Source: Candidatus Oxydemutatoraceae bacterium (GTDB lineage: Bacteria > Pseudomonadota > Gammaproteobacteria > Poriferisulfidales > Oxydemutatoraceae). Taken from it: a stretch of DNA of 64,000 nt. Of this stretch, positions 65 through 56,449 are shown piece by piece. The stretch spans positions 1,728,001-1,792,000 of the forward strand of contig OZ244717.1 of NCBI GenBank assembly GCA_965218975.1, given 5' to 3'. Numbering within the stretch: position 1 is the first letter of the stretch; every line of letters begins with the position of its first letter. The notes beneath the pieces are model-generated. The model had not been told where the DNA came from and ran no database searches. It worked only from the letters and a program-made list of their open reading frames with translations. Made by a program: the position numbers and the translations under genes.

Positions 65-185
65 GCAGGGTGGGACGCGCCGCTGAAAACCGATCGGTTA
101 TTCAGCGGCGAACGACCCGACAAGGACGCCGGGGCTGGCGCTCATTGACAGAACCAAGTCTCGTCATAGACGACAGGCACTTTGC
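65..185 (+). repeat. R repeat copy 1 (~120-bp structured element)
   Basis: GCAGGGTG...GAAAACCGATCGGTT...CCCGACAAGGACGCCGGGG...CACTTTGC; matches ten other copies. Confidence 0.9.
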
Positions 186-419
186 TGAGCATTCACCAAC
201 AAACACAAAACGGTTTCATAACCGATCATTGAATGCTTCCGTATCGGCGAATAGCAGGTCTTCCGCATGATTGATACAATCTTCTTGGACGGTGCGGTTG
301 AAACACTCGATGTACACGTTCATTTTTGGACACTTGGGATAGGTCAGCCACTGCTCAATCGCGGGTGATTCCCGGATGAGGCGGGCAAACTGTCCTTGAA
401 ACTCACTACCGCCGTCCGT

Positions 420-537
420 CAGGGTGAGACGCACCCGGAAAACCGATCGGTTTTCAACGGCAAACGACCCGACAAGGACGTCGGGCTGGCGCTCATTGAC
501 AGAACCAAGTCTCGTCATGGACGACAAGCACTTTGCC
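420..537 (+). repeat. R repeat copy 2
   Basis: CAGGGTGAGAC...GAAAACCGATCGGTTTTC...CACTTTGCC. Confidence 0.9.
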
Positions 538-875
538 AGGTTGCGGCAGTACCGACACTATACACCCAGGGTCAGGCGCAGGAATGCGGCAGCATTACGG
601 CTGTTACAGCGGTTGGTTGCCACTGCTGTTGCCATACGGGTATAGACATTGATGGCCGTTAAGACGTAGCGGTAACACTCCGTGCTGATAACGCACAATC
701 GTATCCAGGGCGATGCAATGCCCCGGATACTGTGCTTTGAAGTGTTTCGACTTGCGTGCCTTGCAACGGCGCTTGAACAGTCGTTTTGTTTATCCTTTGA
801 CATTCAGCCGCTGCGGAATACAGCGCATTTTATCCGGCGCATCCGCAATCAGGCGCGCAATCGTGCGGACACTCG

Positions 876-995
876 GGCAGGGTGAGACGCGCCCGGAAAA
901 CCGATCGGTTTTCAGCGGCGAACGGCCCGACAAGGATATCGGGGCTGAGGTTCATTCGCAGAACCAAGTTTCGTCACGGACGACAGACACTTTAC
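876..995 (+). repeat. R repeat copy 3 (tail continues to 1055)
   Basis: GGCAGGGTGAGAC...CACTTTAC, followed by tail ACACAAAACGGTTTCATCAGC...CTGCCGA. Confidence 0.9.
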
Positions 996-1056
996 TGACA
1001 ACGCGGCAACAAACACAAAACGGTTTCATCAGCTTAAAGACTTTACTGCTGCCGAG

Positions 1057-1285
1057 TGTATAGTGTCAGATACATATGGAATAATCGTCTGAGAGGCAAT
1101 CTGCAATTTGGCTTATCATAGAAACTTTTGCATGATTCGCTCTGGCGAGTCTAACCATCAGATGATCGATTACTTACAACACTACAATGGCGAACGCCCT
1201 CACCGGAGATTAAACGACATGCTCCCTCTATCAAGCCATTTCCCGGCGACTCTCCCATTTGTCCGGAATGTATTGGACACGTACA
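1057..1285 (+). mobile_element. Miniature IS481 derivative (229 bp)
   Basis: Starts TGTATAGTGTCAGATACATATGG (IS left end, cf. 7343-7366), ends GTCCGGAATGTATTGGACACGTACA (right end, cf. 22561); carries transposase C-terminus DYLQHYNGERPH. Confidence 0.7.
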
Positions 1286-1418
1286 ATGAAAGAAACGGAA
1301 TATTAGACAGCGATGACAAAAAACATCGTTGGCAAGTTCTCCTTAAGACTCCGAAGAAATATCAAAAATATCTTTTAATTGATTAAAATAGTTAAGAAAT
1401 ATACCGAGAGGTAATATC

Positions 1419-2726
1419 ATGACCGCAAACTTAGCAAAAGTTGCCAAAGAAAGAGGCATTAAATATTTTCTAGTCAGCTTCGTAGACTTGTTTGGAAACC
1501 TGCGGGCAAAGCTAGTGCCTGCGCATGCCATCAAAGACATGCAAAAAAATGGCGCAGGCTTTGCAGGCTTTGCAACATGGCTAGATATGACACCTGCACA
1601 TCCGGACCTATTTGGAGTACCGGACCCCGGTAGTTTGACTCAATTACCTTGGAATTCCGAGGTGGGTTGGTTAGCGTGTGACCTGTGGATGGATGGCAGA
1701 GAAGTCGAAGCTTCTCCTCGTGTTGCATTAAAAAGGCAACTTGAGCGTGCCGCCAAAAAAGGCTATTGCGTAAAAACAGGGGTCGAGTGTGAATACTTTC
1801 TGATTAATCAAGAAGGCACTGCGGTAGCAGATACAGCTGATACGCAAAGTAAACCCTGCTATGATCAACAAGCATTGATGCGGCATTATCCATTGATTCG
1901 CAAAATATGTGATAGCATGACCGAACTCGGATGGAACCCTTATCAAAACGACCATGAAGACGCTAATGGCCAGTTTGAAATGAATTGGGATTATGACGAT
2001 GCTATGTTGACCGCTGACCGGCATGTGTTTTTCAAATATATGACAAAAACTTTAGCTGAACAGCATAACCTACGCGCTACTTTTGCTCCGAAGCCATTTC
2101 CGAATTTAACTGGGAACGGTTGTCACGCACATATTTCCCTGTGGAATAAAACCGCGCAAAAGAACTTATTCTTGGATAAGAGCGATGATTTAGGTTTATC
2201 CGAGCTGGCCTATCAATTTCTAGGCGGTATCATGCAGCATGCGCAATCTTTGTGTGCAGTGTTTAACCCCACGGTGAACAGCTACAAGCGTATTAGCGCA
2301 CCACGCACCGCTTCGGGTGCTACCTGGTCGCCAAACTCTATCACCTATTCCGGTAACAATCGCACTCATATGATCCGCGTACCGGATGGTGGAAGATTCG
2401 AACTACGATTAATGGACGGCGCTGCAAATCCTTATTTATTACAAGCCGGCGTAATCGCCGCAGGATTGGATGGCATTAAAAACAAAAGTGATCCGGGTAA
2501 ACCTCTACATATTAATATGTACGAAGAAGGGTATAAACTAAAAGCAGTTAGGCAATTGCCGGCCACTCTAATCGATGCCTTACACTTACTCGACAAAAAT
2601 AAAGCGATTCGCAAAAGTTTAGGCGAAGAACTGATTAACGCGTTTATTAAACTTAAGATGCACGAATGGAGAGAATTCACTAGCCACTTCAGTGAGTGGG
2701 AACGTACCAACGCACTAGATTGTTGA
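1419..2726 (+). CDS. glnT: Type III glutamine synthetase-like protein GlnT, probable gamma-glutamylmethylamide synthetase (GmaS)
   Basis: 435 aa; KYFLVSFVDLFG, GAGFAGFATW, NDHEDANGQFEMN, GNGCHAH, RFELRLMDGAANPY motifs; neighbours Amt and Mgs-like genes. Confidence 0.85.
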   Translation: MTANLAKVAKERGIKYFLVSFVDLFGNLRAKLVPAHAIKDMQKNGAGFAGFATWLDMTPAHPDLFGVPDPGSLTQLPWNSEVGWLACDLWMDGREVEASPRVALKRQLERAAKKGYCVKTGVECEYFLINQEGTAVADTADTQSKPCYDQQALMRHYPLIRKICDSMTELGWNPYQNDHEDANGQFEMNWDYDDAMLTADRHVFFKYMTKTLAEQHNLRATFAPKPFPNLTGNGCHAHISLWNKTAQKNLFLDKSDDLGLSELAYQFLGGIMQHAQSLCAVFNPTVNSYKRISAPRTASGATWSPNSITYSGNNRTHMIRVPDGGRFELRLMDGAANPYLLQAGVIAAGLDGIKNKSDPGKPLHINMYEEGYKLKAVRQLPATLIDALHLLDKNKAIRKSLGEELINAFIKLKMHEWREFTSHFSEWERTNALDC

Positions 2727-3449
2727 TAATGTCGTCCGTTTCCAATTCTTATATAATAAGCGGGAATAGCGGTTCATATCTACCATATACTGATTGGCAG
2801 TTACATTCATATTCTCTAAAGCGCTCTCACCTAGCTGCTTTTCCAATGCGGACTTGTACGCGGGAATCTTGCCCCACTCCGTTACTGTCGTGGGTGTAAT
2901 TTCAATATGAAATTGCACGCTTAACACATGTGTTTCTATAGACATTGCTTGAACAATACAAGCGGGTGTCGAGGCAAGTACTTTTGCGTTTCTAGGCACA
3001 CGCTTTACTGCCGCACTGTGCCATTGCAAACAATACATATGTTTAGGCAACTGGTGCAAAAACGGACTATTAACACCCTGCTCCGTGCTCGTTACGCCCA
3101 GCACACCTATCTCAGGCTGCCGAGCTAAACGCACCTCTCCGCCTAATGCATCGGCTAATAGCTGGTGCCCTAAACAGAAACCTAAATAGGGCAATTTACG
3201 CTCCGACACAGCCTCACGAATCGCTGCCTTTTCATCTAATAACCAGGGATATTTATCTTCTTCCCATACATCCATCGGTCCGCCCATTACCCATAAAGCA
3301 TCATAACTATTCAAATTAGGGATGGGTTCACCTTCATCTAATTCAACGGTATGCCATTCAATCCCATCTTCTTTTAAAAATTCACGGAAGATTCCGGGGT
3401 GCTCTGCCGCAATATGTTGAAAAACCAATATTTGTTCTAACTTTTTCAC
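2715..3449 (-). CDS. Class I glutamine amidotransferase
   Basis: 244 aa; VMGGPM, GFCLGHQ nucleophile elbow, QFHIE triad; GTG start. Confidence 0.85.
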   Translation of the reverse strand: MKKLEQILVFQHIAAEHPGIFREFLKEDGIEWHTVELDEGEPIPNLNSYDALWVMGGPMDVWEEDKYPWLLDEKAAIREAVSERKLPYLGFCLGHQLLADALGGEVRLARQPEIGVLGVTSTEQGVNSPFLHQLPKHMYCLQWHSAAVKRVPRNAKVLASTPACIVQAMSIETHVLSVQFHIEITPTTVTEWGKIPAYKSALEKQLGESALENMNVTANQYMVDMNRYSRLLYKNWKRTTLSTI

Positions 3450-3451
3450 GA

Positions 3452-3949: not shown

Positions 3950-3996
3950 TTCAGCCGCCGAATAATACGACTTTTACCAGTTAAGACAGACTGCAT

Positions 3997-4028: not shown

Positions 4029-4052
4029 AACAGGAGAACGTCAGCGAAAAAA

Positions 4053-4313: not shown

Positions 4314-4343
4314 TAATTATTTTAAATAGAAAGTATCGGATCA

Positions 4344-5762
4344 TTATATAAGCCCATCCTTTTTCGCATTCTCCAATAGCAATTTATCTAATTCGCTTGA
4401 CTCTAGGTCTATTTGCATTTCGCTAGAAATATCCAAACCTGCCAACTCGATTTCTTTCGGAATACGCAACAGCCCTGCAGCATCAAGTATCTTTGCTGCA
4501 ATAAGAGCTGGGAAAAATCCTAAGACAAAGAACATAATGAGTGCGCCGATAAATTGCCCCCAAGGCGAAATAGTTGCGTAGTTTTCAAACGGCGAAGCCG
4601 GATACCCCCACAACACAAAACCACAAATGACAACACCAAAAAAGCCAGCGTACCCATGCACCGCAACTGCGCCTACCGCATCGTCCACCTTGAATCTCTT
4701 CTCAACCCAGTGATGCATCCTATATGCAATAATCACGCCCACAATTGAGATAACGAATGCTTGCATTGGATGGTATAAGTCATTTCCTGCCGAGGCGGCA
4801 ATCAAACCCGCAAGCCCACCGGAAAATGTCCAGAAAGGATCACCTTTAGAAACAATATAACCGCTCATTAACCCCCCGGACAAAGCAATTAAGAAATTAA
4901 ACGTAATTGCCGAAAGTGTCGTGGGACCAAGGTAGATATTAGTCGCAGTAAACATTGTTTTGCCTTCAACGTCTAACATATCACCGCCAAAGAAATCTAT
5001 GATAGGCACATTACACGCTGCATAGAATCCCCAAAAACCCGTGTAAATGAGAAAGATACCTATACACAGCAGCCACGGATTGTGCGGATTAATATTTCGA
5101 GGCGCTCCATCTTCACGGAACTTTCCGATACGCGGACCTAAAACCAGCAGTATGCCTAAAGCGAACCCGCCCGCAATTGCATGAATAACTCCCGAAGCAT
5201 ACGCATCATGGTAGCCTAGCTTATGCACCATCCAGCCGTCCCAATGCCAGCCCCAAGCCGCATCGATAATCCAAAGGACCGAACCAATTAAAACAGCCAA
5301 GATCCAAAATCCGCCGGATTGAATGCGTTCAATCACCGCACCGGAAACAATTGATGCCGCGGTCCATGAAAAAAGTAAAAATGCGCCCCAAAATACACCG
5401 TTAATACGCGCCCAAGACGCTGTATTATCTGCAGTTAACGCTTCCTGTACAGGGACGCCACCCATATGAGGGCCCATCAGCTCACTCCAAGGTGTCGCGT
5501 GCACTGCGCTTTGTATACTGCCCATAATTCCCGGTCCGTACGGAAATGCAAAATAAATCCACCATCCGAAAAAGAAAAATGTAATGGTCACTAACGGAAT
5601 GATCATTATATTTTTCATTAGAGTATGTAAGTGGTTTTTATGTCTTGAAGCGCCTACTTCATACATGCAGAATCCCACATGGATTAGGAACATGATTACT
5701 ACAGTTACCCAATAATAAAATTCGGTAAAAACGACGGTAAGCGAGCCTAGTGCATCAGTCAT
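4344..5762 (-). CDS. amt: Ammonium/methylammonium transporter (divergent Amt)
   Basis: 472 aa, multi-TM; SIVSGAVIER, GVIH and AVHG twin-His, LGPRIGKF, VDDAVGA motifs; good RBS. Confidence 0.9.
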   Translation of the reverse strand: MTDALGSLTVVFTEFYYWVTVVIMFLIHVGFCMYEVGASRHKNHLHTLMKNIMIIPLVTITFFFFGWWIYFAFPYGPGIMGSIQSAVHATPWSELMGPHMGGVPVQEALTADNTASWARINGVFWGAFLLFSWTAASIVSGAVIERIQSGGFWILAVLIGSVLWIIDAAWGWHWDGWMVHKLGYHDAYASGVIHAIAGGFALGILLVLGPRIGKFREDGAPRNINPHNPWLLCIGIFLIYTGFWGFYAACNVPIIDFFGGDMLDVEGKTMFTATNIYLGPTTLSAITFNFLIALSGGLMSGYIVSKGDPFWTFSGGLAGLIAASAGNDLYHPMQAFVISIVGVIIAYRMHHWVEKRFKVDDAVGAVAVHGYAGFFGVVICGFVLWGYPASPFENYATISPWGQFIGALIMFFVLGFFPALIAAKILDAAGLLRIPKEIELAGLDISSEMQIDLESSELDKLLLENAKKDGLI

Positions 5763-5807
5763 ACCTATTCCTCCCTTTTGTTTTCTTTTGATCGCAACAC
5801 ATCTTAA

Positions 5808-5863
5808 ATTAAGTGTTCGTTAAACATTAAGTGTTCGTTAAACATAGCGAATATGCGAACATT
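5808..5863. promoter_or_regulatory. Tandem 18-bp direct repeat with TGTT-N5-AACA boxes upstream of amt (candidate operator)
   Basis: ATTAAGTGTTCGTTAAAC at 5808-5825 and 5826-5843; inverted half-site GCGAACATT at ~5855-5863. Confidence 0.45.
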
Positions 5864-6069
5864 ATTATTAGTTATGCCTGTATCGCAGCTAATACATTAC
5901 ACCTCATTTTTCATATAAAAAATATACCGTGAGTATTAGTCCTAATAGGTATATTTTTTCTAACTACTAATAGGCATAAATAAGTGTACGATGCCACCTA
6001 AATGGGATTTTTGAAGAGCTTTGAGGGAAGCGCTCGGCAGTAACATTCGGACCGGTGCTTTCTGTCCGT

Positions 6070-6183
6070 GTGAGACGCGCCCGGAAAACCGATCGGTTTT
6101 CAGCGGCGAACGACCCGACAAGGATGTCGGGGCTGGCACTCATTGACAGAACCAAGTCTCGTCATGGACGACAGGCACTTTGC
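6070..6183 (+). repeat. R repeat copy 4 (left end clipped)
   Basis: GTGAGACGCGCCCGGAAAACCGATCGGTTTTC...CACTTTGC. Confidence 0.9.
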
Positions 6184-6417
6184 TGAGCATTCGCCAACAA
6201 ACACAAAACGGTTCCATAACCGGTCATTGAATGCTTCCGTATCGGCGAATAGCAGGTCTTCTGCATGATCGATACAATCTTCTTGGACGGTGCGGTTGAA
6301 GCGCTTGATGTGTGCGTTCATTTTTGGACACTTGGGATAGGTCAGCCACTGCTCAATCACGGGTGATTCCCGGATGAGCCGGGCAAACTGTCCTTGAAAC
6401 TCACTCCCGCCGTCCGT

Positions 6418-6536
6418 CAGGGTGAAACGCGCCCGGAAAACCGATCGGTTTTCAGCGGCGAACGACCCGACAAGGACGTCGGGGCTGGCGCTCATTGACA
6501 GAACCCAGTCTCGTCATGGATGACAGGCACTTTGCC
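6418..6536 (+). repeat. R repeat copy 5 (tail to 6616)
   Basis: CAGGGTGAAAC...CACTTTGCC plus tail with three ACAATCC units. Confidence 0.9.
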
Positions 6537-6925
6537 GACAATCCGGCACAATCCGCCGACAATCCGGCAGCAAACACAAAACGGTTTCATCAGCTCAAAG
6601 ACTTTACTGCTGCCGAAATTCTGCCAGGCGCAGGAATGCGGCAGCACTACGGCTGTTACAGCGGTTGGTTGCCACTGCTGTTGCCATACGGGTATAGACA
6701 TCGATGGCCGTTAAGACGTAGCGGCGCACTTCGTGCTGATCACGCACGATTGTATCCAGGGCGATGCAATGCCCCGGATACTGTGCTTTGAAGTGTTTCG
6801 GCTTGCGTGCCTTGCAACGGTGCTTGAACAGTCGTTTTGTTTGTTCTTTAGCATTCAGATGCTGCAGAATACAGCGCATTTTATCCGGCGCATCCGCGAT
6901 CAGGCCGCAATCGTGCGGACACTCG

Positions 6926-7045
6926 GGCAGGGTGAGATGCGCCCGGAAAACCGATCGGTTTTCAGCGGCAAGCGACCCGACAAGGACGTCGAGGCTGGGG
7001 TTCATTCGCAGAACCAAGTCTCGTCATGGATGACAGGCACTTTGC
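6926..7045 (+). repeat. R repeat copy 6
   Basis: GGCAGGGTGAGAT...CACTTTGC. Confidence 0.9.
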
Positions 7046-7395
7046 TAGGTTGCGGCCAGGTCCGCCGACGCCTCTTGCGCGGTGCTTTGCCGCGGTCATG
7101 CAAGGCGCTGAGCCCAGTGCGGCGATAACGCTTGCGCCAGGCATACAAAGTGCTACGACTGAGCTTGAATGTGTTCGGGAGTTACAATCCTCCCAAAATA
7201 ACAGGGCATCGTGTTTCTGTTGAGCCGTTGTGTTCATGAGCCTCTATTTTTGAAGCAAAATTGGCTCATATAGAAACCTTTGATGCGGTGGCCGATGTGC
7301 TGGTATTGCATATCGGTCACCTTTTCGAGTTAAGCCGTGAGTCCCATATGTATCTGGCACTATACACTGTGGTTCCCGACTCGAAGTGGACCCGC

Positions 7396-15822: not shown

Positions 15823-16111
15823 CGTCGTCGCGCCCGAACACAGCAGACCTTGCTTGCGGCACCACGGCAAAAGCAACACATAAACCTTGGTCCCGTCCTT
15901 AGCGGGATACCTTAGGCGCAGACGACAGATTTCCCAAATCGGCATTTGTGGTCAGATACGGCGATGCCATTGTGCTCATGGGCCTCCGTTTTTGAAGCAA
16001 AACCGGCTATTCTATAGAAACCTTTGATGCGGTGGTCAATGTACTGATATTGTATATCAGTCACCTTTTCATTGACATCCAAGAACCCCGAATGTATCCG
16101 GCACATGTACA
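15823..16111 (-). mobile_element. IS481 5'-end relic next to the tRNA-Leu 3' end
   Basis: Left end TGTACATGTGCCGGATACAT (minus strand); QYQYIDHRIKGFY N-terminus; internal part homologous to 23163-23279. Confidence 0.75.
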
Positions 16112-16122
16112 GAAGAGTTAAA

Positions 16123-22515: not shown

Positions 22516-22560
22516 AATAGCGGTAAATTGTATCCGTTCGTACGATGGAACACAAATATT

Positions 22561-23810
22561 TGTACGTGTCCAATACATTCCGGACAAATGAGGGAGTTGC
22601 CGGGCAATGACTTGATACGGAGCCATGTAGTTCAATCCCCGGTGGGGGCACTCGCCGTTGTAGCGCTGCAAGTAATCAATCATCTACCGGTTAAACTCAC
22701 CGATATCTTCAAGCAGTAACGCTTCCCGATAGTCGATAAACTCTTCCTGGACAGTACGGTTGAAGCGCTCGTTATAAGCATTCATTTTGGGGTACCCGGG
22801 TAAGTATAGCAGTGGCGGATCTTTCGGTGCCGTCGGTCAATACTTGCTCGATTTTGCCCGGTAAGACCGTTTGCACCAAGGCGACAAACCGAGCCGCTTG
22901 GGTGCTATTGCCGCGAGGCACTGCCGACGAAGGCAAAGCGGCTTGAATGATCCGTTGCGGTCGGAATATAGCGTCGGCTGCCTTCGATAAAACAGATAAT
23001 AGTATCGAAAGCAACACAGTGTCCGACATGCTTGGCACCGGCTTTGCGATCTAGACGCGGGCGCGGCGGCTTACGTCGCAACGGTTTGGCTCAACCTTTG
23101 CGATCCAAGCGCTGCGGTGAGCAACGCATCCGATCCGAGGCATCTGAAATCAAGCGTCCGATCGTCGTCGCACTCGAACACAACAGACCTTGCTTCCGGC
23201 ACCACGGCAAGTGCAACACATAAATCTTGTCCCGTCCCTAGTGGGGTATCTTAGGCGCAGACGACGGATTTCCCGGATCAGAGTTCGCGGCCAGACTCAA
23301 CGTCGGCGTTTACGCGGCGTTCTGCTGCGGTCGTGCAAACTGCTCAACCCTCCCTTTTGTGTTTGTTGGCGGATTGTCGGCGGATTGTGCCGGATTGTGC
23401 CGGATTGTCGGCAAAGTGCCTGTCATCCATGACGCGACTGGGTTCTGTCAACAAGCCCCAGCCCCGACGTCCTTGTCGGGTCGTTCGCCGCTGAAAACCG
23501 GTCGGTTTTCCGGGCGCGTCTCACCCTGCCGATAGGCCAGGGCGCCATGCATACAGCATCAAACGACTGATCTTGAATGCATCGCAGACAGCGACCATGC
23601 CATGGTTTTCCTGGAAGGTGAGAATTTTGAGTCGTTGTTTTGCATCGTAAGCTTATAGTGTCCCAACTATGCTCGATTTTAGCGACCCGGTAAAACCCCC
23701 GGATTCGATAGCCTATATGTTGGATTTGTAAGGCTTCTCTTCCTGTCGGTAGGAGTGCCAAATGTTTCTAAGCTTATGCACAAGGTTCCCACTAAATATA
23801 AATCAATATA
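22561..23810 (-). mobile_element. IS481-family relic (subtype B) carrying one R repeat
   Basis: Right end TGTACGTGTCCAATACATTCCGGAC; fragments QIQHIGYRIRGFY, KIEQVLTDG, RFNRTVQEEF, YNGECPH; frameshifts and stops; left boundary approximate. Confidence 0.8.
23410..23530 (-). repeat. R repeat copy 7 (tail extends to ~23354)
   Basis: Reverse complement of R; both ends complete (GGCAAAGTG...CACCCTGCC); tail with four GGATTGT units. Confidence 0.9.
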
Positions 23811-23895: not shown

Positions 23896-25458
23896 ATGAC
23901 TATATCTATGGATATCAGGGACGAGATAGAACGCATCCGAACGCTGAAGGACATCAATCAATTGAACGAGTCTACCCTGCAAACTTCTATCGTGTTGCCT
24001 GTATTGCGTGCGTTGGGTTGGAACACATCTGACCCGGACCAAGTCAGACTAGAACATAACGTTGCCAACCATCTAAAAGGAAGGGCAGATATTGCATTGC
24101 TCGGAGACCATAAGCCTCTGGCTTTGATTGAAACGAAAGCTCCGCGTCGCCTGCTGGAAAACGTGGACAAATATCGCAACCAGCTATTTGAATACTGTCG
24201 CTTATTGCAGATAACTTCGGGAGTGTTGAGTAACGGTAAAGAATGGTATTTTTACTATCTCGGAGACTCTACTATACCGGCAGATGTTATAGACCTCCTT
24301 AAAGACGATATACCGCAAAGCGCAGCTAAACTCCGGCGATTCTTAAGTCGAGAGAAAATACTGGACGGAAGCGCTCGTTCATTTACTGAGGAAGCGCTGA
24401 CCCAACGGATCCTGAACAGAGAGTGGAAAAAATTACTTACGGAGGGCGACAGGCAATTGGTTGCCAGACTAAGGAAGGAGGTTAAAATTACTTCCAACGT
24501 GTCAGTAAGCCTCTCACAGGTAGCCGGGTTTCTCAAAGGACGCGCCGACCTGCCGTCGGCGACGCACTCAATTGAACAAAGCATGGAAGTTGCGGAGACT
24601 AACACCGCAGCTACCTCAACACAATTGACAAAGCCCGACAATGTAAGCTCTCGAGTGTCTGCACCATCGGCTGACGTCACAGCTACCTCAACGCAATCAA
24701 CGGAGCTGCCTAAGGACCAAAGCCACACTAAGCAGCGGCCCACGCATATTCAGGCATTCGGAAAACGTATAGAGTGCGCCACATGGAAAAGTGTCTTGGT
24801 AGAGTTTCTGCTTGAGCTATATGCACGCCACCCTGATTTATTCCAACGTTTAACGGACGCACCGAAAAGGTCGGTTCCGTATCAGCCGAAATTCGCACAA
24901 GATCGTGAGAAACTAAGATCGGTGGGTGTGCCGCGCAAGATAGGTGAATCGGGATATTGGGTGGAAACTTGGGGTGGCAGGAAGGGCACCGAACAGTACT
25001 GTCGTGCCGTTCAGCAGCTGCTTAACCTGCCTGAGGACACGCTGGTTATACATTCGGCTGACATTGTAGCTACCTCAACGCAACCAGCAAAACCGCCTAA
25101 GGACCAAAGTCACACTAAGCAGCAGCCCACGCATATTCAGGCATTCGGAAAACGTATAGAGTGCGCCACATGGAAAAGTGTCTTGGTAGAGTTTCTGACT
25201 GAGCTGCACGCCAGCCACCCTGATTTATTCCAACGTTTAACGGACGCACCGAAAAGGTCGGTTCCGTATCAGCCGAAACTTGCAAAAGATCGTGAGAAAC
25301 TAAGATCAATGCGTGCGCCGCGCAAAATAGGTGAATCGGGATATTGGGTAGAAACCAAAGCTAGCAGTGACGCCATCGAAAAGCACTGCCGTGCCGTTCA
25401 GCAGCTATTCAACTTGCCTGAGGACACGCTGGTTGTGCATTCATCCGATCAACACTGA
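23896..25458 (+). CDS. HsdR_N-like PD-(D/E)XK nuclease fused to two tandem SeqA-C-like domains
   Basis: NE...LPVLRALGW...E...RADIAL...IETK...QLFEY...LSNG nuclease pattern; RBS AGGAGG; C-terminal domain duplicated; the SeqA similarity is judged by eye. Confidence 0.75.
   Translation: MTISMDIRDEIERIRTLKDINQLNESTLQTSIVLPVLRALGWNTSDPDQVRLEHNVANHLKGRADIALLGDHKPLALIETKAPRRLLENVDKYRNQLFEYCRLLQITSGVLSNGKEWYFYYLGDSTIPADVIDLLKDDIPQSAAKLRRFLSREKILDGSARSFTEEALTQRILNREWKKLLTEGDRQLVARLRKEVKITSNVSVSLSQVAGFLKGRADLPSATHSIEQSMEVAETNTAATSTQLTKPDNVSSRVSAPSADVTATSTQSTELPKDQSHTKQRPTHIQAFGKRIECATWKSVLVEFLLELYARHPDLFQRLTDAPKRSVPYQPKFAQDREKLRSVGVPRKIGESGYWVETWGGRKGTEQYCRAVQQLLNLPEDTLVIHSADIVATSTQPAKPPKDQSHTKQQPTHIQAFGKRIECATWKSVLVEFLTELHASHPDLFQRLTDAPKRSVPYQPKLAKDREKLRSMRAPRKIGESGYWVETKASSDAIEKHCRAVQQLFNLPEDTLVVHSSDQH
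24667..25450 (+). repeat. Intragenic tandem duplication, period 387 bp (129 codons)
   Basis: TCGGCTGAC at 24667 and 25054; long identical tracts between the two copies. Confidence 0.95.
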
Positions 25459-29800: not shown

Positions 29801-32779
29801 TATGTCTAAATCGATCACGGTTTCCTTATAGGTCGTAGCTGTACTCTCGAATTGTTGTCGGTAACTTTGAGCAAGTTCCGCTGCAGACTCGAGATCTTGT
29901 ACTAAATCACTGCCTACGGGACCTAGCAGAGAAGAGTACGACTTGTTGTATGCCTTAGGTAAAATACGTTCGAGTGCTGCAACCATTTGCAGGTCACCTT
30001 GACTCATCACCCGAATCGGCAATCTCAGGGTTTTGATCCAAGACTGAAGTACTGCTTCCAGTCCTAGCGCTGCACTGTGAAGGGCTGTGGACTGGTCAAT
30101 AACTTTCCTTTGCCAAGATGGAGACCAATCATCGGCTTCGACCCTGTTGAAGCAACTCTTGCTTATATCACCAATCTGATCGGCATTTACATCAATGCGA
30201 GATGCTATATTGGAAAGTGTCTCAAGGTCACCCTCCGTGTGAGCTTGATGATCAGGCCAATTGAAACTGAGTTCGCTCACAGTCGGATTGTTTATTACAA
30301 CTCCGATGGCCTGAAAAATGCTAAGACCGTTGGAATAAGTTTTGTGGAGCTGCCTAACATAGGTATTGAGGTTTTCACGCAAGCCCATCAGACGCTCAGC
30401 CTCACGATCCCAATTGGAAATCCTTGGATACCTGCTTTGCCATGCCCGATCCAGTTGGGCTATCACATCAGTCTTTCTTGCCTTGCTAGAGTGCAGTTCC
30501 AGGCAAAACTTACCCAGTCCTACTTCACGCAAACGACGATAGACGACATCTAAGGCTGCTGTTTTCTCAGATACAAACAGTACTTTTTTCCCTATGGCCA
30601 ACAGATGGCTGATTATGTTTGCAATCGTCTGGCTTTTGCCCGTCCCGGGAGGTCCTTTGATCACGAAGTCCATACCTTCTGATGCTGCAATGACTGCCGC
30701 CATTTGAGTGCTGTCACACGACATGGGCAAATAGGTGTTTTTCGGATGACATTTACTATCCATCTCCTCCGGGCGTGTAAAGTCGACACCGTCGTTGCCC
30801 ATATACGTATCCCGAGGAGTATCAATCAAATGTTTAACCAAGGGTGAATTCTTGAGATGTTCAGTCCGTGCATCCAGGTCAGCCCACATCAAGTACTTGG
30901 CGAAGCTGAACGTACTTAAAACTAGATCGTCAGAAACTTCCCAACCTTCAATGTCACGAACATGCTGTCTGACAATATTCCATATTCTATCAACATCCAA
31001 GCCGGAATCATCCGTCGGCAGTTCTTTTGAAAGTTCTTGAATTTCAAGCCCGAAGTCTTGGCGAAGCATTTGCAGTAAGGTCGGATTAAACTGCGGTTCG
31101 TCATCATGGATACGTAGCTTGAATGCAGCATTCACAGACCTCCGAGAAAGACTGACTGGAATCAGTATCAGCGGTGCTTGGTAGTTACGAGTCCGGTTGT
31201 CCGTCTGAGTCCAGTTCAAAAAACCGAGTGCCAGATATAATATGTTGGTGCCGCCTTCTTCAATCGCTGCCTTTGATGCTCGATACAATTCTATAAGTGA
31301 CCCTGTCAACTTGTTTTGATCCATTGCAGCGGTAATTTTCCCACGTTTCATAGCCTGCAATACTTGTTCTCCGTGCAAATCTTCCGAAAAACGTCTGCGG
31401 TGTTCTTCATCACTTCGAGGATCGGTGGAGCTAATCACTTTCTCCAAAGGAGCAAATGTAAAGACTTGATCCTCGGCCAGCATATCTTCCAGCTCACCAG
31501 GATTTGTGCAGATAAACGGTACTGCCCTTTTGGACTTCTTGAAGTTCAGAAGTCTGTTGCGTAATGACAGGTCAAGGAGTTTTCGTTTCCAGTTTTCAAC
31601 TCGAGCATCTGCACCCACTTTCTTGTCAGGAGTGGGTGCATCCGGATACTCAACATCCTCAGGCAGATCACTCAGATCATCTAAGCCTGCATCAATTACC
31701 TTATCTACCTGAGCTTCCTCTTTTCCTACTTCTGTGACGCGTTCAAAAAGCGGTTGAATCCTGGCAAGTCGAGATTGTTTTATATCAACCAGCAACAGAA
31801 AACCTGCTTCATCCAACAGTTTACTTTTAGCCTCCTTCCTCGCTTCGTTAAATCTTCTAGCCGGTCTATCCGTAACTAAAGTGGTCTCAAATACCAGTAT
31901 TTCCTTCAGGTTGACTCTTTTACGCAAAGCCTGCAGGTCCTCGACCACACTTGTGCCAAACTCCAGGTCTTCCAGCCAGACGCCGGCAAAAGCATGTCCT
32001 TTAGTAAAAATGACAAGAGAATTAAGACCTGCCTGTTCCAGGGCGCCGACAAATAACAATGTCGAGTCCATGCACGTGACAAGACGGTGACGCTTCACCT
32101 CTTCGGGCAACCGAATCTTTTGACCTGCATCTTCAAAACTTGCGGGAGGCTCAGCGTACGTCAAGTCCTGCTTGACGACTGCCGACCAAATGGCATTGAC
32201 CAGCTCACCTGTTCTCTTACGACTTTTTGACCGATAGCCGTCGAGCTTTGGATTACGCCCATTGGCTTCCAGTACCTTCGCTGCAGTTCGCAAAATTTCC
32301 TGAATAAATGGAGAATTAGGTTGAACAAACGCTGCAAGAATTTCCGGCAGTTCCTTGGTGCCGCTCCATTCGTTGCGACTCAGAACTTCAGTATCACAAG
32401 ATGCCGTAGCAAGGACTTCATCCCCTGATTTCAAAGTAAAGTAGTAAGTGCCCCTGACAGCCTCATTCACCTCCTCCAAAAAGTGCGGGTTGAGTTCAAT
32501 CGCGCAGTCACGTAAAGAGTGCTCAGTACCAGATACTAGTCGATCGATATGCCATGTCTTGGTTTCAGCAAATTCCGGGCTAGCTGTAACGGTAAGCTTT
32601 AAATCTTGATAGCTGACATCAGTGGGATTGAGCAACGTTATTTCACGAAGAACTGGTACTGAGTTTTGCTGGAGTGCCAAATTTACCTTGCCGGCAGCCG
32701 TAACATGGATTGTTATGACTCGTTCGTCAGTCGCATTACCAGCAATCTCTGAAGTCACTTTTCTTCTCCTATAGGACAT
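26810..32779 (-). CDS. DUF4011-SF1 helicase-Vsr/REase-DUF3320 protein (Hhe-type antiphage architecture)
   Basis: 1989 aa; WKRKLLDLSLRNRLLNF, GPPGTGKS, DEASQ, GDPKQLPP, HYRS, QGDER, RRLNVAITRAR, FDSEFE...RIDL...IECDG; N-terminal TCMD...GHAF motif. Confidence 0.85.
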   Translation of the reverse strand: MSYRRRKVTSEIAGNATDERVITIHVTAAGKVNLALQQNSVPVLREITLLNPTDVSYQDLKLTVTASPEFAETKTWHIDRLVSGTEHSLRDCAIELNPHFLEEVNEAVRGTYYFTLKSGDEVLATASCDTEVLSRNEWSGTKELPEILAAFVQPNSPFIQEILRTAAKVLEANGRNPKLDGYRSKSRKRTGELVNAIWSAVVKQDLTYAEPPASFEDAGQKIRLPEEVKRHRLVTCMDSTLLFVGALEQAGLNSLVIFTKGHAFAGVWLEDLEFGTSVVEDLQALRKRVNLKEILVFETTLVTDRPARRFNEARKEAKSKLLDEAGFLLLVDIKQSRLARIQPLFERVTEVGKEEAQVDKVIDAGLDDLSDLPEDVEYPDAPTPDKKVGADARVENWKRKLLDLSLRNRLLNFKKSKRAVPFICTNPGELEDMLAEDQVFTFAPLEKVISSTDPRSDEEHRRRFSEDLHGEQVLQAMKRGKITAAMDQNKLTGSLIELYRASKAAIEEGGTNILYLALGFLNWTQTDNRTRNYQAPLILIPVSLSRRSVNAAFKLRIHDDEPQFNPTLLQMLRQDFGLEIQELSKELPTDDSGLDVDRIWNIVRQHVRDIEGWEVSDDLVLSTFSFAKYLMWADLDARTEHLKNSPLVKHLIDTPRDTYMGNDGVDFTRPEEMDSKCHPKNTYLPMSCDSTQMAAVIAASEGMDFVIKGPPGTGKSQTIANIISHLLAIGKKVLFVSEKTAALDVVYRRLREVGLGKFCLELHSSKARKTDVIAQLDRAWQSRYPRISNWDREAERLMGLRENLNTYVRQLHKTYSNGLSIFQAIGVVINNPTVSELSFNWPDHQAHTEGDLETLSNIASRIDVNADQIGDISKSCFNRVEADDWSPSWQRKVIDQSTALHSAALGLEAVLQSWIKTLRLPIRVMSQGDLQMVAALERILPKAYNKSYSSLLGPVGSDLVQDLESAAELAQSYRQQFESTATTYKETVIDLDIADLLARLSAAEEKWFMPKWLDVRAIKAQIKPFSGGSKISNVVSDLTLLSVASNAKTALEKLKGLDNVIGRKFDGIHTEPALFAEAAGFGRELRSVMSALFTAPETYRKATSTMTSLLQSSELLGPSGQIQASTSAFMRALKAFKAAQQSLRETIAATGDLHVESDDKSFLKMTADTCAQWVEQAPRLKAWTAWRRVREKALKKDMQSLVDAVENGSLVDSTAEEAFRVNYHRWWLDRAVDSDDVIRKFVPAEHVRVIDDFVKLDKEFMELTQAYVYAKLSQVIPSRGHVPQGSTWHVLSREIQKQRRHMPVRQLIEKLGSNLFKLTPCVMMSPMSVAQYLPPDGASFDVVVFDEASQITPWDAIGAIARANQAIIVGDPKQLPPTSFFNRQEDEYNDSDIDADLESILDECMGANLPTYQLKWHYRSRQESLITFSNHTYYDGGLITFPSPATADKAVSFHYVDNGLYEKGGKRINQPEARAVVNSIVTKLRDPGFKKTGMTIGVVTFNQEQQILIEDMLEKARRDYPEIEPFFAEDTIESIFVKNIESVQGDERSIIYFSMTYGKDRSGRLSMNFGPMNQEGGPRRLNVAITRARNEMHVYSSMQPEDIDLSRTKAFGVRDMKRFMDFAKRGRKAIGESIERPLGTFDSEFEEQVAARLEERDWTVHSQIGVSGFRIDLGVVHPDKAGKYLAGIECDGATYHRSATARDRDFLREQVLKRLGWKILRIWSTDWWVNPADCIDRIDQQLHELLESCAEDSGAPSEEVPDTVLVTQNSSEEGVNTDFASTDGHDITSEGDPQEVVWEKVAGSVVEDAPEIPGKREYIPWGVASNDIKLRRDSFYEYDYRATLSHLMEQIVQHEQPVRVEVLFKLITTAHGFKSAGSRINQVLSEVLEKNNRLQITTEDNVRFVWLVDADIAHWDGFRVVNGFSYQRTAENVAMPELVAMSRHFIDCGCDIEGAVVEMRKWLGMRRMGEKSRKRLESAYKKASIGDNH

Positions 32780-32859: not shown

Positions 32860-32900
32860 TACGTTTTATTATATGCAATCTATAACATGATACTCTTTCT
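32860..32900 (+). repeat. 41-bp direct repeat, left copy
   Basis: TACGTTTTATTATATGCAATCTATAACATGATACTCTTTCT; 38/41 identical to 33865-33905. Confidence 0.9.
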
Positions 32901-33502
32901 GTATATGCCAGATATATATAGGACTCACGGCGCGACTCAAATATGCAATATCAGCACCGGCCACTGCATCAAAGGTTTTTGTACGAGCCAATTTAGCTAA
33001 CAAAATAAAGATTATGATGGGGAGGCTCATGGCAACCAGTGCCGACAAGAAACACGATACCCTCATTTTTTTGGGGTTTGTAACACACGACGTTTCCTGC
33101 CGATCTGTGACCGGCTTGTCGTTTCGGGGGAAACTACGGACCAGGATGTCACCGAGCGCATTCAAGGTCGGTCGTTCAACACTGTATGCATGGCGTCCTA
33201 TTGACAAGGAGAGTTGAGCAGTTTACGCGATCGCGGCAAAGCACCGCGCAAACAGCGGCGGCGGATCTGACCGTAGCCCGGCAAAGTACCTGTCGTCCAT
33301 GACGAGACTTGGTTCTGGCAATGAACCCCAGCCCCGACGTCCTTGTCGGGTCGTTCGCCGCTGAAAACCAATCGGTTTTCCGGGCGCGTCTCACCCTGCA
33401 CCACCCTCATGCCGATAACGAACAGTAAGCACCAATCCGAATATTACTGCCAAACGCCTCCCTCAAAGCCCTGCAAGAATCCCACCAGGGTGGCATCGTA
33501 CA
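32900..33502 (+). mobile_element. Internally deleted IS481 subtype A (5' part-R-3' part)
   Basis: Left end TGTATATGCCAGATA, right end GGTGGCATCGTACA; fragments GHCIKGF and RSTLYAWR; one R copy joins the first and last segments. Confidence 0.85.
33280..33399 (-). repeat. R repeat copy 8
   Basis: GGCAAAGTACC...CTCACCCTGC. Confidence 0.9.
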
Positions 33503-33534
33503 TTCTCCGGCGAAAAATCGGCTATATTAAAGGC

Positions 33535-33750
33535 ATGAGTACTACCGCACTTTACAAAGCATTAGTTGAAGCCGGTGCATCAAAGGATGCTGCTGAAAGA
33601 GCCGTCAAAGGTTTAGCGCATACGGAGGAGGGCGCTGCCAAAACCGATTTGGCAGAGCTCAAAGTTGAATTGATTAAATGGATGGTAGTGCTTACCGAAA
33701 TTATCATCGCCGCAGTCGGTTTTTTCTCCGATAATGGCTTAACCGATTAG
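33535..33750 (+). CDS. Small coiled-coil/TM protein (DUF1640/CCDC90-like)
   Basis: 71 aa MSTTALYKALVEAG...KTDLAELKVELIKWMV; TATATT lies 6 nt before ATG. Confidence 0.65.
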   Translation: MSTTALYKALVEAGASKDAAERAVKGLAHTEEGAAKTDLAELKVELIKWMVVLTEIIIAAVGFFSDNGLTD

Positions 33751-51819: not shown

Positions 51820-51845
51820 AACGTAACTCCTTGGAGATACAATCA

Positions 51846-53168: not shown

Positions 53169-53195
53169 TCTTTTCCCTTCAACAGGGTGAGCCAG

Positions 53196-53278
<83 letters not shown>

Positions 53279-53362
53279 ACGGGACAAAGCATTATAATTC
53301 GCTTACAAGATTGACCAAAACTCAGCTTTAATTGCCGACAACCAAACGAGCCACTATTCATG

Positions 53363-53683
53363 TCAAAGTGCGGTATTGATAATACGCATGTAATATTGTC
53401 GCCAATTATTACCCATCAGACGCAAATCCTCATTGCTATTCTTAAAATATCGGCGGTTGAGCAAATAAGAAAAATAAGGGATCTTATAAAAAATTGCGGC
53501 GCCAACCATCAAAATGGTCCCGGTCAGCGTTTTATACCGTTCGTACAAAGGAATTTCATTTAGCCAGAAAAGGAATCCTATCGTGCATACGAACGCGGAA
53601 AAAGCCAAAGTTAATAAGCGATTAAATCTATTATGATTCAATCTGATTGTACATAGCCTTTCTATGGCATCCGTCGCCATCAA
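53363..53683 (-). CDS. Hypothetical 2-TM membrane protein
   Basis: ~105-aa ORF with two hydrophobic segments, directly downstream of 16S. Confidence 0.55.
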   Translation of the reverse strand: MMATDAIERLCTIRLNHNRFNRLLTLAFSAFVCTIGFLFWLNEIPLYERYKTLTGTILMVGAAIFYKIPYFSYLLNRRYFKNSNEDLRLMGNNWRQYYMRIINTAL

Positions 53684-53753
53684 CCTAGCTCACAAAAATA
53701 AGTAAGATAATTTGTGTGGATGCTCACATCTTAGCTGGAATCTTTTCTCTTTA

Positions 53754-55306
<1,553 letters not shown>

Positions 55307-55506
55307 AAAATATTTGGCAACTTGCGTTGCCAAAATGGTTTTTTTGATGAAGACCGATCCGAAACTCTATACTGAATTTCAGTTGGCACTTACATCAAAG
55401 TTTAGATTCAGCTTCAACGTAAGCACCCGCACAAATTATCTATCATTAATACTTTATCAAATAACATTGCCAGCCCTACAATTTGAGTCGACAACTAAGG
55501 TTTCTA

Positions 55507-55535
55507 ATCATATAGCAGACAATATACTAAGTCAA
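55507..55535 (-). promoter_or_regulatory. Sigma70 promoter of the 16S gene
   Basis: TTGACT-17 bp-TATGAT on the minus strand, ~200 nt before mature 16S. Confidence 0.7.
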
Positions 55536-55644
55536 GGTGTTGTACGATGCCACCCTAAATGGGATTTTTGAAGGGCTTCGGGGGAAGCGTTCGGCAGTAA
55601 CATTCGGATCGGTGCTTTCTGTCCGTTGCCGGCATGAGGACGGT

Positions 55645-55763
55645 GCAGGGTGAGACGCGCCCGGAAAACCGATCGGTTTTCAGTGGCGAACGACCCGACA
55701 AGGACGTCGGGGCTGGCGCTTATTGACAGAACCAAGTCTCGTCATGGACGACAGGCACTTTGC
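55645..55763 (+). repeat. R repeat copy 9 (tail to 55823)
   Basis: GCAGGGTGAGAC...CACTTTGC. Confidence 0.9.
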
Positions 55764-56132
55764 TGAAAATCCGGCAGCAAACACAAAATGGTTTCATCAG
55801 CTCAAAGACTTTACTGCTGCCGAAATTCTGCCAGGCGCAGGAATGCGGCAGCACTACGGCTATTACAGCGGTTGGTTGCACTGCTATTGCCATTCGGGTA
55901 TAGACATCAATGGCCGTTAAGACGTAGCGGCGCACTCCGTGCTGATAACGCACAATCGTATCCAGGGCGATGCAATGCCCCGGATACTGTGCTTTGAAGT
56001 GTTTCGGCTTGCGTGCCTTGCAACGGCGCTTGAACAGTCGTTTTGTTTGTCCTTTGGCATTCAGCCATTGCGGAATACAGCGCATTTTATCCGGCGCATC
56101 TGCGATCAGGCGCGCAATCGTGCGGACACTCG

Positions 56133-56252
56133 GGCAGGGTGAGATGCGCCGCTGAAAACCGATCGGTTTTCAGCGGCGAACGACTCGACAAGGATGTCGG
56201 GGCTGGGTTCATTCGCAGAACCAAGTTTCGTCACGGACGACAGACACTTTAC
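56133..56252 (+). repeat. R repeat copy 10 (tail to 56312)
   Basis: GGCAGGGTGAGAT...; perfect 32-bp palindrome variant. Confidence 0.9.
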
Positions 56253-56330
56253 TGATAACACGGCAACAAACACAAAACGGTTTCATCAGCTCAAAGATTT
56301 TACTGCTGCCGAGATTCGGATAAGCCTGGC

Positions 56331-56449
56331 GCAGAGTGAGACGCGCCCGGAAAACCGATCGGTTTTCAGCGGCGAACGACTCGACAAGGACGTCGGGGCT
56401 GGCGTTCATTGACAGAACCAAGTCTCGTCATGGACGACAAGCACTTTGC
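56331..56449 (+). repeat. R repeat copy 11
   Basis: GCAGAGTGAGAC...CACTTTGC. Confidence 0.9.

Follow-up and report, generated by a model that had tools for sequence, protein, structure and literature searches.

MITEs and internally deleted insertion sequences (IS) mobilised in trans are short, non-coding and present in many copies. The same is true of R, a structured repeat of mostly 118 nt in the genome of a Candidatus Oxydemutatoraceae bacterium, and the commonest relic of its IS481-like hosts consists of two IS ends around R arrays, with the transposase deleted. Unlike MITEs, however, R is not IS-derived, shows no family-conserved terminal repeats or regular target duplication, and has no cognate transposase that could be found. 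In fact, it is the IS relic that is the MITE-like vehicle, and R is the passenger. R also resembles the REP/BIME sequences associated with RAYT and the palindromes derived from IS200/IS605, being likewise hairpin-rich, strand-consistent, inserted by a short fixed motif and devoid of terminal repeats. Yet no Y1/RAYT gene was found, R is three to four times the length of a REP, and its orientation follows that of the IS.

Rickettsia palindromic elements (RPEs) are structured sequences of 100–150 nt that insert inside genes and for which a transposase is not known. They insert in frame and remain translated, whereas R breaks the frame and has IS genes as its hosts. In E. coli, the 178-bp repeats of the tyrT locus are repeat units that carry partial tRNA ends within tRNA operons. 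The module to which R belongs is likewise accompanied in other genomes by partial tRNA ends and an intact tRNA, often in tandem, but it occurs across many families and with many different tRNAs, and its hairpins are conserved and covary. Finally, the Rsm RNAs are of a size comparable to the module, and some species carry several rsm genes in tandem. Like the decoy RNAs of the Csr/Rsm systems (CsrB, CsrC and RsmX/Y/Z), the module has GGA motifs in its loops and occurs as several tandem copies in some genomes; it differs in having only two GGA hairpins, no matching Rfam model and a location in tRNA leaders or spacers or after csrA.

R copies and their IS481-like hosts

All 11 copies of R listed in the original prediction are present in the window (the whole stretch of 64,000 nt that was analysed), and their predicted starts agree with the profile positions to 1–2 nt. 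The 18-nt central palindrome has 11 matches there with up to three mismatches allowed (8 exact, 2 with one mismatch and 1 with two), against a chance expectation of 0.01, and that number was reached in 0 of 100 shuffles. A profile of the copies places nine on the plus strand and two (23411–23528 and 33281–33398) on the minus strand; the original prediction did not mention that these two are inverted. The features of the window are as follows.

1..1287, minus strand: IS481-like family-1 relic with three R copies, extending past the window start (repeat depth; tblastn with P0001)
66..185, plus strand: R copy at site A of IS family 1, before the transposase HRPH codons (nhmmer 121 bits, model 1–118; flanks map to A_left/A_right)
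420..536, plus strand: R copy at site B, immediately before the TDGGSEF codons (profile; comparison of filled and empty sites)
878..994, plus strand: R copy of site C type in the transposase N-terminal part, followed by tail, S segment and IS end (profile, flanks, sequence)
1108-1386, plus strand: family-2-like C-terminal fragment abutting the first relic (tblastn with P0001)
5974..7371, minus strand: IS481-like family-1 relic, the reference copy, with three R copies and a broken transposase (depth profile; sequence; tblastn, P0001 residues 1-318, 30% identity)
6068..6183, plus strand: R copy at site A, lacking its first bases along with 23 nt of the IS upstream of it (profile, sequence)
6418..6535, plus strand: R copy with its left junction at site B and its right side joined to tail and S segment, a C/B recombinant (profile, flanks, sequence)
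6536..6621, plus strand: R tail (11-nt CGACAATCCGG/CACAATCCGC units, end CAAACACAAAA) and S segment (sequence, junction comparison)
6928..7045, plus strand: R copy at site C (profile, flanks)
15823..16116, strand unassigned: IS fragment without R, adjoining tRNA genes (sequence comparison)
22531..23782, minus strand: IS481-like family-2 relic, frameshifted, with one R copy (tblastn; R-free relative L010)
23411..23528, minus strand: R copy with tail (to about 23352) at site E of the family-2 relic, AGGG on both sides (comparison of filled and empty sites)
32900..33654, minus strand: heavily deleted IS relic around the R copy at 33281 (tblastn, repeat depth)
33281..33398, minus strand: R copy in a relic of which the IS left end and a C_right fragment remain (flank mapping)
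55528..56766, minus strand: IS481-like family-1 relic with three R copies and an internal deletion between them, adjoining the 16S rRNA gene (sequence comparison)
55646..55763, plus strand: R copy with A_left on the left and tail/S on the right, an A/B-C recombinant (flank mapping)
56135..56251, plus strand: R copy, left flank of site C (profile, flanks)
56332..56449, plus strand: R copy of junction type D, the S-segment end meeting the R start at a CAGG common to both (flanks, junction comparison)

The reference relic measures about 1.04 kb without its three R copies and has imperfect inverted end repeats that start with TGTA. The S segment comes from the N-terminal coding part of the native transposase and has travelled with R; it aligns to the corresponding region of the homologue P0001. 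Nine of the 11 copies lie in three family-1 relics and one (23411) in a family-2 relic, where it runs in the transposase sense, opposite to the arrangement in family 1. The claim that every copy interrupts an IS481 transposase gene thus nearly holds in the window, the exception being the copy at 33281, whose host is reduced to end fragments without a detectable coding remnant. As predicted, the other intergenic gaps of the window gave no further profile match, and no copy has a credible ORF; the 117-nt copy at 420..536 is open in the transposase frame by chance, as read by eye. All three hairpins that had been described were found, and homologues in other genomes have the two small ones too, with compensatory changes. 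The imperfect terminal repeats fared less well, with only 7 of 9 positions matching and no comparable 3′ end in the homologue alignments.

Across the 2.08-Mb genome, R occurs in 317 copies (score at least 60 bits) that form 192 arrays in 96 clusters and amount to 35 kb, or about 1.7% of the sequence. The strands are evenly used (159 plus, 158 minus), with orientation following the IS. Of the 192 arrays, 183 have one or both 120-nt flanks alignable to the reference IS copy; for 30 of these 183 the downstream flank alone aligns (in 11 of the 30 the alignment is confined to R's own tail or the S segment next to it), and therefore 153 arrays have an aligned upstream flank. The mapped flanks lie in one orientation relative to R in 345 of 347 cases. 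They are themselves repeated 30–100 times in the genome, in a repeat unit bounded by IS ends. The expected tie to IS481 relics extends to nearly all copies genome-wide, the relics belonging to two IS481-like families. It does not extend to two inverted clusters (149.1–149.8 kb and 153.0–153.8 kb of the genome; 11 copies) in otherwise unique DNA, and 9 of the 192 arrays have neither flank matching the reference IS. The 3.2-kb segment between the two clusters encodes MNT/HepT, an HNH endonuclease and an IrrE-like peptidase; lacking a transposase, it was rejected as an autonomous partner of R. A tRNA remnant in the unique flank was likewise rejected, there being no significant match to any of 45 tRNAs. 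Contigs from runs of other organisms also show R joined to IS segments, and these contigs end at repeats.

The hosts are termed IS481-like here: the IS481 NCBIfam model is their best match, yet both a fragment (74.8 bits) and the intact homologue P0001 (162 bits) fall below its cut-off of 224, and matches to Pfam rve/rve_3 are weak. No intact IS481-like transposase was found in the genome. Every family-1 copy that bears R has a broken transposase gene, and relics free of R are just as dead. No target duplication of R-carrying IS copies was recognised among the four paired ends compared. One other repeat family was opened, and its only intact transposase belongs to an unrelated 1.93-kb IS of about 15 copies that contains no R.

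Homologous modules in other bacteria

R had been regarded as not matching any described element. Rfam returned nothing for it at gathering thresholds or at E ≤ 0.01 (the sub-threshold matches, at E 0.27–0.8, are to unrelated families and at chance level), and full-text searches of the literature turned up no account of an R-like element. In kind, however, R is not unique to its genome. No close copy turned up when one genome per species was scanned for an exact 41-nt match, when metagenome contigs were searched with a gapped pattern, or when plasmids (blastn) and 40 relatives (BLAST) were queried; diverged relatives were detected by a covariance model only. This model matched 23 of 150 other genomes of the class, one per family, with 1 to at least 22 copies each (22 of 149 without the unpublished genome G180), as well as 2 of the 40 relatives. 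Moreover, a profile made from six foreign sequences alone recovers 318 R copies. R is homologous to a module family spread across the class.

The module spans about 110–125 nt and comprises a 5′ GGGYGAGC, a variable hairpin P1 (the central palindrome of R), GCGAACGNCC, hairpin P2 with an A-N-GGA loop, GGGCYGG, a variable region, and hairpin P4 (GCCA-NGGA-UGGC). The covariation check suggested with the original prediction showed that P2 covaries strongly: 86% of cells are paired, both sides differ in 82 cells (26 ± 3.6 in shuffles), and the covariation score was 0.285 against at most 0.046 in slid controls. In foreign sequences the loops of the two hairpins contain GGA in 63 and 62 of 69 cases, and the two lie a median of 44 nt apart (42–61 nt). 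Within the source genome, R varies little in conservation along its length, the best conserved parts being P2 and the GGGCTGG motif (P2 96.6%, mean 93.4%). The fold of R DNA has modest z-scores (−1.6 and −1.5), so its overall stability is unremarkable.

The genomic setting of the module elsewhere is quite different. A tRNA gene directly adjoins it in 13 of 27 loci (12 genomes) and in all three loci of the relatives, with no IS near these tRNA-adjoining modules; the positions are tRNA leaders or spacers, and sites after csrA. Modules in other genomes are preceded by a copy of the first 19–25 nt of the tRNA gene, or of its last 16 nt reversed, and the intact tRNA then follows, often in a tandem arrangement. 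In G113 and G054 the order is csrA-module-module-tRNA-Ser-module, continuing to tRNA-Arg in G113. In G158 modules lie directly downstream of csrA on the csrA strand, and in G065 one module lies about 0.7 kb from csrA on the other strand. The source genome encodes CsrA, but no module was found at its own csrA-tRNA-Ser locus, nor any tRNA-adjacent copy of R. Of the 12 G152 loci fetched, 6 have a pair of modules arranged in MITE-like fashion, inverted and with terminal repeats.

The CsrA consensus is given as a GGA within a hairpin loop (PMC4347634). Both GGA hairpins are carried by R, and in the module they fit this consensus and are predicted CsrA/RsmA sites. The Rfam models for CsrB/CsrC/RsmX/Y/Z gave no match on R (E up to 1) or on a csrA-linked locus (E up to 5), and the presence of csrA does not set module-bearing genomes (21 of 23) apart from the others (101 of 127). 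The proximity of modules to csrA could be a by-product of the tRNA association.

Entry of R into transposase genes

Empty sites show that R is foreign to the IS: copies lacking R at sites A, B, C and E have continuous coding sequence, and this native sequence aligns to intact homologues such as P0001. R entered IS481-like transposase genes at at least four sites, in two IS families and always at a native CAG(G), which forms the left junction at sites A, B, C, D and E. Where matches reach the junction, R is adjacent in 56 of 67 at site A, 25 of 31 at site B and 18 of 21 at site C. Clean insertion is seen at one of four sites only, namely site E (three filled and two empty copies), where the 4-bp AGGG is duplicated; at sites A, B and C, 15–22 nt of target are replaced by R, with no duplication seen. 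An intron-like insert was rejected, since filled copies lack 6–8 native codons. R at site A also carries 6 nt native only to site C, and sites A and B are found in each of the four filled/empty combinations. In a tree of the IS segment between these two sites, 1 of 34 branches was supported, too few to separate single from repeated insertion. Recombination among IS copies has blurred the insertion history. Pairwise identity is 91.8–92.4% for R and 91.9–92.6% for the adjacent IS segments. R and IS being equally diverged, most copies therefore arose by hitch-hiking on the IS burst, R–R recombination and tandem duplication, and not by repeated targeting.

We consider it fairly probable that R is this lineage's amplified form of the class-wide structured module, copied into IS481-like genes and spread with the IS. 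This reading is built on demonstrated parts: homology, distribution, junction anatomy, the equal age of R and IS, and the absence of the partner genes sought. The module with its A-rich tail would have been copied into transposase genes at at least four positions in two IS families, with each junction at a native CAG(G)/GGG, a match to the 5′ end of the module itself, probably by microhomology-guided copying or repair that needs no dedicated transposase. Disrupted IS copies that kept both ends may then have been multiplied by intact copies supplying transposase, a step suggested solely by the IS-bounded repeat unit. R–R recombination would subsequently have removed coding parts of IS copies, and slippage at CAGG/GG repeats would have built the head-to-tail arrays, the end state being that all IS481-like copies are dead. 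Four independent hits on IS, with no single insertion in ordinary unique DNA, would be unexpected of an untargeted process and leave some preference for IS unexplained.

A true hyperparasitic MITE, one of the two readings offered in the original prediction, would have been inserted into IS481-type transposase genes at a CAGG-like target by a lost or unrecognised enzyme acting in trans. R is indeed non-coding, foreign, present in transposase genes and almost absent outside IS relics. Its sites in two IS families and both orientations all have the native CAG(G), filled and empty states are mixed among closely similar IS copies, and both the clean insertion and the MITE-like module pairs of G152 speak in favour of a MITE. 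Conserved ends, a partner gene and repeated targeting did not stand up, however. No terminal inverted repeats are conserved across the R family, and the R ends are unlike those of the IS481-like elements. The proposed search for an autonomous partner gave no matches to Y1 (HUH) transposase (PF01797), TnpB (PF07282) or reverse transcriptase (PF00078) and no IS110 gene in a genome rated 99.4% complete, and the one intact transposase seen, in the one other repeat family opened, is that of the R-free IS. With target replacement at three of four sites, an age equal to that of the IS burst and tRNA genes as the module's neighbours elsewhere, a hyperparasitic MITE seems unlikely.

A different proposal is that R was kept or amplified because its RNA titrates CsrA, the IS relics being carriers of a huge regulator decoy. 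The two hairpins with their 42–61-nt spacing, the place of modules directly downstream of csrA on its strand in G113, G054 and G158, the presence of csrA in the source genome and the superior conservation of P2 and GGGCTGG would all accord with this. R is nevertheless conserved almost evenly along its length and decays as fast as dead IS DNA. Its direction relative to the transposase also differs, antisense in family 1 but sense in family 2, and therefore no common promoter is evident. Selection of R as a decoy is, on balance, quite improbable.

An anti-transposon defence of the host that inactivates IS481 and leaves R as its scar or product, raised in the original prediction, would explain the broken transposase in every R-bearing family-1 copy and the recurrent positions of R. 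It is unsupported, because the same module lies beside tRNA genes with no IS nearby among the 23 of 150 other genomes; R-free IS481-like relics are equally dead, an unrelated IS family is intact and untouched, and candidate machinery was not found, which makes a scar highly implausible. A native internal repeat of one IS family, for which the IS boundaries and equal age of R might speak, is refuted by the continuous empty sites, the foreign homologues without any IS and the two clusters outside IS DNA, and has next to no chance of being correct.

Implications of the R expansion

R illustrates how a short structured sequence that carries no mobility genes itself can come to occupy about 1.7% of a genome. 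On the preferred account of a module captured by IS481-like elements, its path would have been to enter the IS, ride the IS burst, and then drive IS decay through recombination and tandem expansion. For RNA biology, a by-product may outweigh R itself, namely a conserved, covarying two-hairpin module seen beside tRNA genes in roughly a sixth of the families sampled in the class. Should the module bind CsrA, it would represent a novel type of regulator decoy, situated within tRNA transcripts and at the regulator's own locus.

A bolder idea, and a rather speculative one, is that the family consists of undescribed CsrA/RsmA-binding RNA units in tRNA leaders and the csrA-tRNA-Ser-tRNA-Arg locus that are able to spread. 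Capture by an IS481-like element would then have multiplied the unit about 300-fold here, with an IS amplifying the decoy of a global regulator. Were this so, the IS481-like element would be the first known vehicle for a CsrA-binding unit.

Abundance and arrangement of the repeat

The original prediction that the structured repeat R occurs 11 times in the window was borne out. Its central 18-nt palindrome was found 11 times, in eight cases exactly, against a chance expectation of 0.01, and the copies could be aligned over ~118 nt in common, from CAGGGTGAG to CACTTTGC. Nine are on the plus strand and two (23411 and 33281) on the minus strand. The window itself belongs to a single contig of 2,081,000 bp with 47.7% G+C, and a profile of the 11 copies gave 328 matches genome-wide. 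The census threshold of at least 60 bits leaves 317 of these, covering 35,202 bases, and 180 copies are essentially full length. The copies occur in 192 arrays (109 singles, 57 doubles and 19 triples, the largest array having seven copies head to tail), which are grouped in 96 clusters. Head-to-tail arrays have a period of 98–107 nt; at their junctions the upstream copy stops at model position 102–106 and the next begins at 1–3, and these junctions fall on short repeats (CAGG, GG) found both at the beginning of R and in its 3′ part.

Other repeats were encountered as well. At genome positions 1035013–1035697, three partial R copies (model positions 1–80) sit within a 302-bp tandem repeat, the third abutting an IS left end. 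A 56.9-kb stretch outside the window (genome 929899–986786) reaches a self-similarity depth of ~79; Tandem Repeats Finder detected no array with a period up to 500 in its first 12 kb, and the stretch is probably a giant gene or a long-period repeat region. Within the window, a 520-aa ORF at 23896–25458 contains two 300-nt direct repeats (24667–25353), which are 91% identical and spaced 387 nt apart.

Decayed IS481-like elements as hosts of R

Nearly every R flank is itself repetitive, at 30–100 copies. Around the reference IS copy, a relic of the first of two IS481-like families (family 1), the repeat unit is bounded at window positions 5975–7375, ends in imperfect inverted repeats, and measures ~1.04 kb once its three R copies are subtracted. 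It encodes a broken rve-type transposase on the minus strand, the best intact relatives of which are 350–390 aa in length and 44–47% identical. For the transposase fragment and these relatives alike, the top NCBIfam model is IS481 at scores below its cut-off, so “IS481-like” is the correct label. A second IS481-like family (family 2) is more diverged. The genome has no intact IS481-like copy; its rve-similar open frames reach at most 246 aa, with one 666-aa exception that has only a marginal rve match (E 0.003). A tblastn search returned 84 transposase-like loci, of which 13 are without R, and 70 of the 96 R clusters are within 300 bp of such a locus. An unrelated, R-free IS of 1.93 kb, present in ~15 copies (genome 876–2811 and ~14 further sites), encodes the only intact transposase seen (559 aa).

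Within these hosts, the arrays fall into a limited set of upstream flanks.

Upstream flank classes of the R arrays
Site A, family-1 transposase gene, before the HRPH codons: 68 arrays
Site B, same gene, before the TDGGSEF codons: 28 arrays
Site C, same gene, N-terminal region after MKPFC: 18 arrays
Junction type D, end of the carried N-terminal transposase segment (S) joined to the R start: 38 arrays
IS left end: 7 arrays
Family 2: 2 arrays
Tail class (~6582): 5 arrays
Other: 2 arrays
Unmatched: 24 arrays

The reference orientation is kept in 345 of 347 mapped R flanks. Recombinant relics are numerous, and the commonest single class (46 arrays) joins the left side of site A to R and then to the A-rich tail and S segment. 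In the relic sequences the coding core has been lost, and IS ends surround the R arrays. R–IS junctions also occur, without the unique flanks of the window locus, on contigs assembled from sequencing runs assigned to three other organisms (one example, of 313 nt, spans 6135–6447 with 13 differences), so the composite is not confined to the present assembly.

The earlier claim that R always lies inside IS481 relics holds for nearly all of it but fails for two inverted clusters in otherwise unique DNA, which are the one clear case of R beyond an IS; nine arrays are without any matching IS flank. The two inverted arms (genome 149062–149850 and 153047–153919; positions 1562–2350 and 5512–6419 of locus L113) each comprise a 96-nt unique flank and a diverged R array, with 11 diverged copies in total. 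The 3.2-kb segment between them carries MNT/HepT, HNH endonuclease and IrrE-like peptidase genes, and the arrangement resembles an inverted duplication or a segment able to invert. Adjoining these clusters, at genome 153933–155399, is a truncated paralogue (488 aa) of a 1989-aa protein encoded at window 26810–32779 on the minus strand, whose domains are DUF4011, an AAA_11/AAA_12 helicase and REase_MTES_1575. Elsewhere in the window, a 16S rRNA gene (53754–55306) is separated by 220 nt from an IS relic that carries R (55528–56766). This gene stands alone, with no 23S, 5S or tRNA-Ile/Ala spacer within the window, and given its isolation the rRNA operon appears to be split.

Entry of R into the IS and its age

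R is foreign to the IS, since sites A, B and C, as well as site E of family 2, are also found empty, with uninterrupted coding sequence that can be aligned to intact homologues. The left junction at every site is a native CAG(G) that overlaps the first bases of R. At site E (three copies filled, two empty), R and its tail form a clean insertion with AGGG on either side, and R runs in the sense of the transposase, the opposite of family 1. At sites A, B and C, 15–22 native nucleotides are replaced by R. Six bases of the R copy at site A are native to site C alone, and the right junction at site B shows a 9-nt match to sequence adjoining site C. Such a pattern of joins, replacements and matches agrees better with copying guided by short homology than with cut-and-paste. 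The original prediction had raised the possibility of an autonomous partner (a transposase, HUH/RAYT or reverse transcriptase), for which no candidate emerged among the gene types searched: Y1/HUH, TnpB, IS110 and reverse-transcriptase genes are all absent from the genome.

Between loci, R is 91.8–92.4% identical and the adjacent IS segment 91.9–92.6%, and this equality makes R as old as the IS burst. Copies at sites A and B are 91.6% identical to one another, a divergence no greater than that among same-site copies, and identity rises slightly, to 93.5%, among the copies of a single locus. Most R copies either came along with the IS or arose by local duplication. All four filled and empty combinations of sites A and B were found, and the IS tree is poorly resolved, a picture indicative of recombination between IS copies or of repeated conversion. 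The view of R as a parasite of IS481 is half upheld: R has invaded IS genes, but its high copy number is second-hand.

Related modules, tRNA genes and csrA

When 400 genomes from the class were searched by BLAST, three weak matches appeared, each covering one shared 36-nt stretch of R; once aligned, they displayed the R architecture with compensatory changes. A covariance model built on a 78-nt core found homologous modules in 23 of 150 other genomes, one per family (22 of 149 if the unpublished genome G180, on which no conclusion depends, is left out), at 1 to at least 22 copies per genome, some of them in tandem with a period of 120–163 nt; G113, G152 and G158 are among the high-copy genomes. 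Two of 40 relatives have modules, with 2–3 copies each. A profile made from six foreign sequences alone recovered 318 R copies in the present genome and nothing else above noise. Among 69 distinct foreign sequences, 86% of cells in the hairpin P2 are paired, and its double changes number 82 versus 26 ± 3.6 in shuffles, while slid controls collapse. The A-N-GGA loops of P2 and the second hairpin, P4, are present in 63 and 62 of the 69, ~44 nt apart. R is a member of a widespread module family and not a one-off, and the family is apparently undescribed. In line with the original prediction, which did not recognise R as a described element, full-text literature searches judged by titles and abstract starts yielded no description of R or the module. 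The family, R included, had no Rfam match at gathering thresholds or at E ≤ 0.01, and R itself had nothing beyond chance-level matches to unrelated families at E up to 1; in the window, gathering-threshold matches were confined to seven tRNAs and one 16S rRNA gene.

At 13 of 27 loci (12 genomes), the module has a tRNA gene within ~110 nt, as it does at all three loci in the relatives. Typically, the upstream side holds a copy of the first 19–25 nt of the tRNA, ending at the D-loop GG, or else a reversed copy of its final 16 nt, and the downstream side has an A-rich spacer followed by the intact tRNA, often in tandem. In genomes G152 and G158, a module is found directly 3′ of the rpmJ stop codon. 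G152 also has a MITE-like element of ~270 nt, composed of two different modules tail to tail as an inverted pair with terminal inverted repeats starting ACAGGATT, at 6 of the 12 loci examined in that genome (L074–L078 and L080).

Modules are also found near csrA. G113 (L068) and G054 (L070) share the single-strand order csrA, module, module, tRNA-Ser(gct), module, continuing to tRNA-Arg(acg) in G113. In G158 (C74:8330–9187), modules come right after csrA on the csrA strand, and G065 (C1:2768070–2768990) has one module 0.7 kb from csrA on the opposite strand. Modules are therefore on the csrA strand in three of the four csrA-linked genomes, and GGA two-hairpin modules downstream of csrA and around the genes for tRNA-Ser(gct) and tRNA-Arg(acg) are a conserved, unannotated feature of the locus. 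In the present genome, csrA is followed directly by tRNA-Ser with no module between.

A CsrA dimer can span a pair of binding sites separated by tens of nucleotides. By sequence motif, the two module hairpins are predicted sites that fit the CsrA/RsmA SELEX consensus, a GGA within a hairpin loop (PMC4347634; reviewed in PMC7652899). Against a link to CsrA, csrA itself occurs in 21 of 23 module-bearing genomes versus 101 of 127 others, the Rfam Csr/Rsm models match neither R nor a csrA-linked module locus, and conservation along R in this genome is nearly flat (mean 93.4%; P2 96.6%). The closeness of modules to csrA may be a consequence of their tRNA habit. The most interesting lead is the association of these modules with GGA hairpins, with tRNA genes and with csrA.
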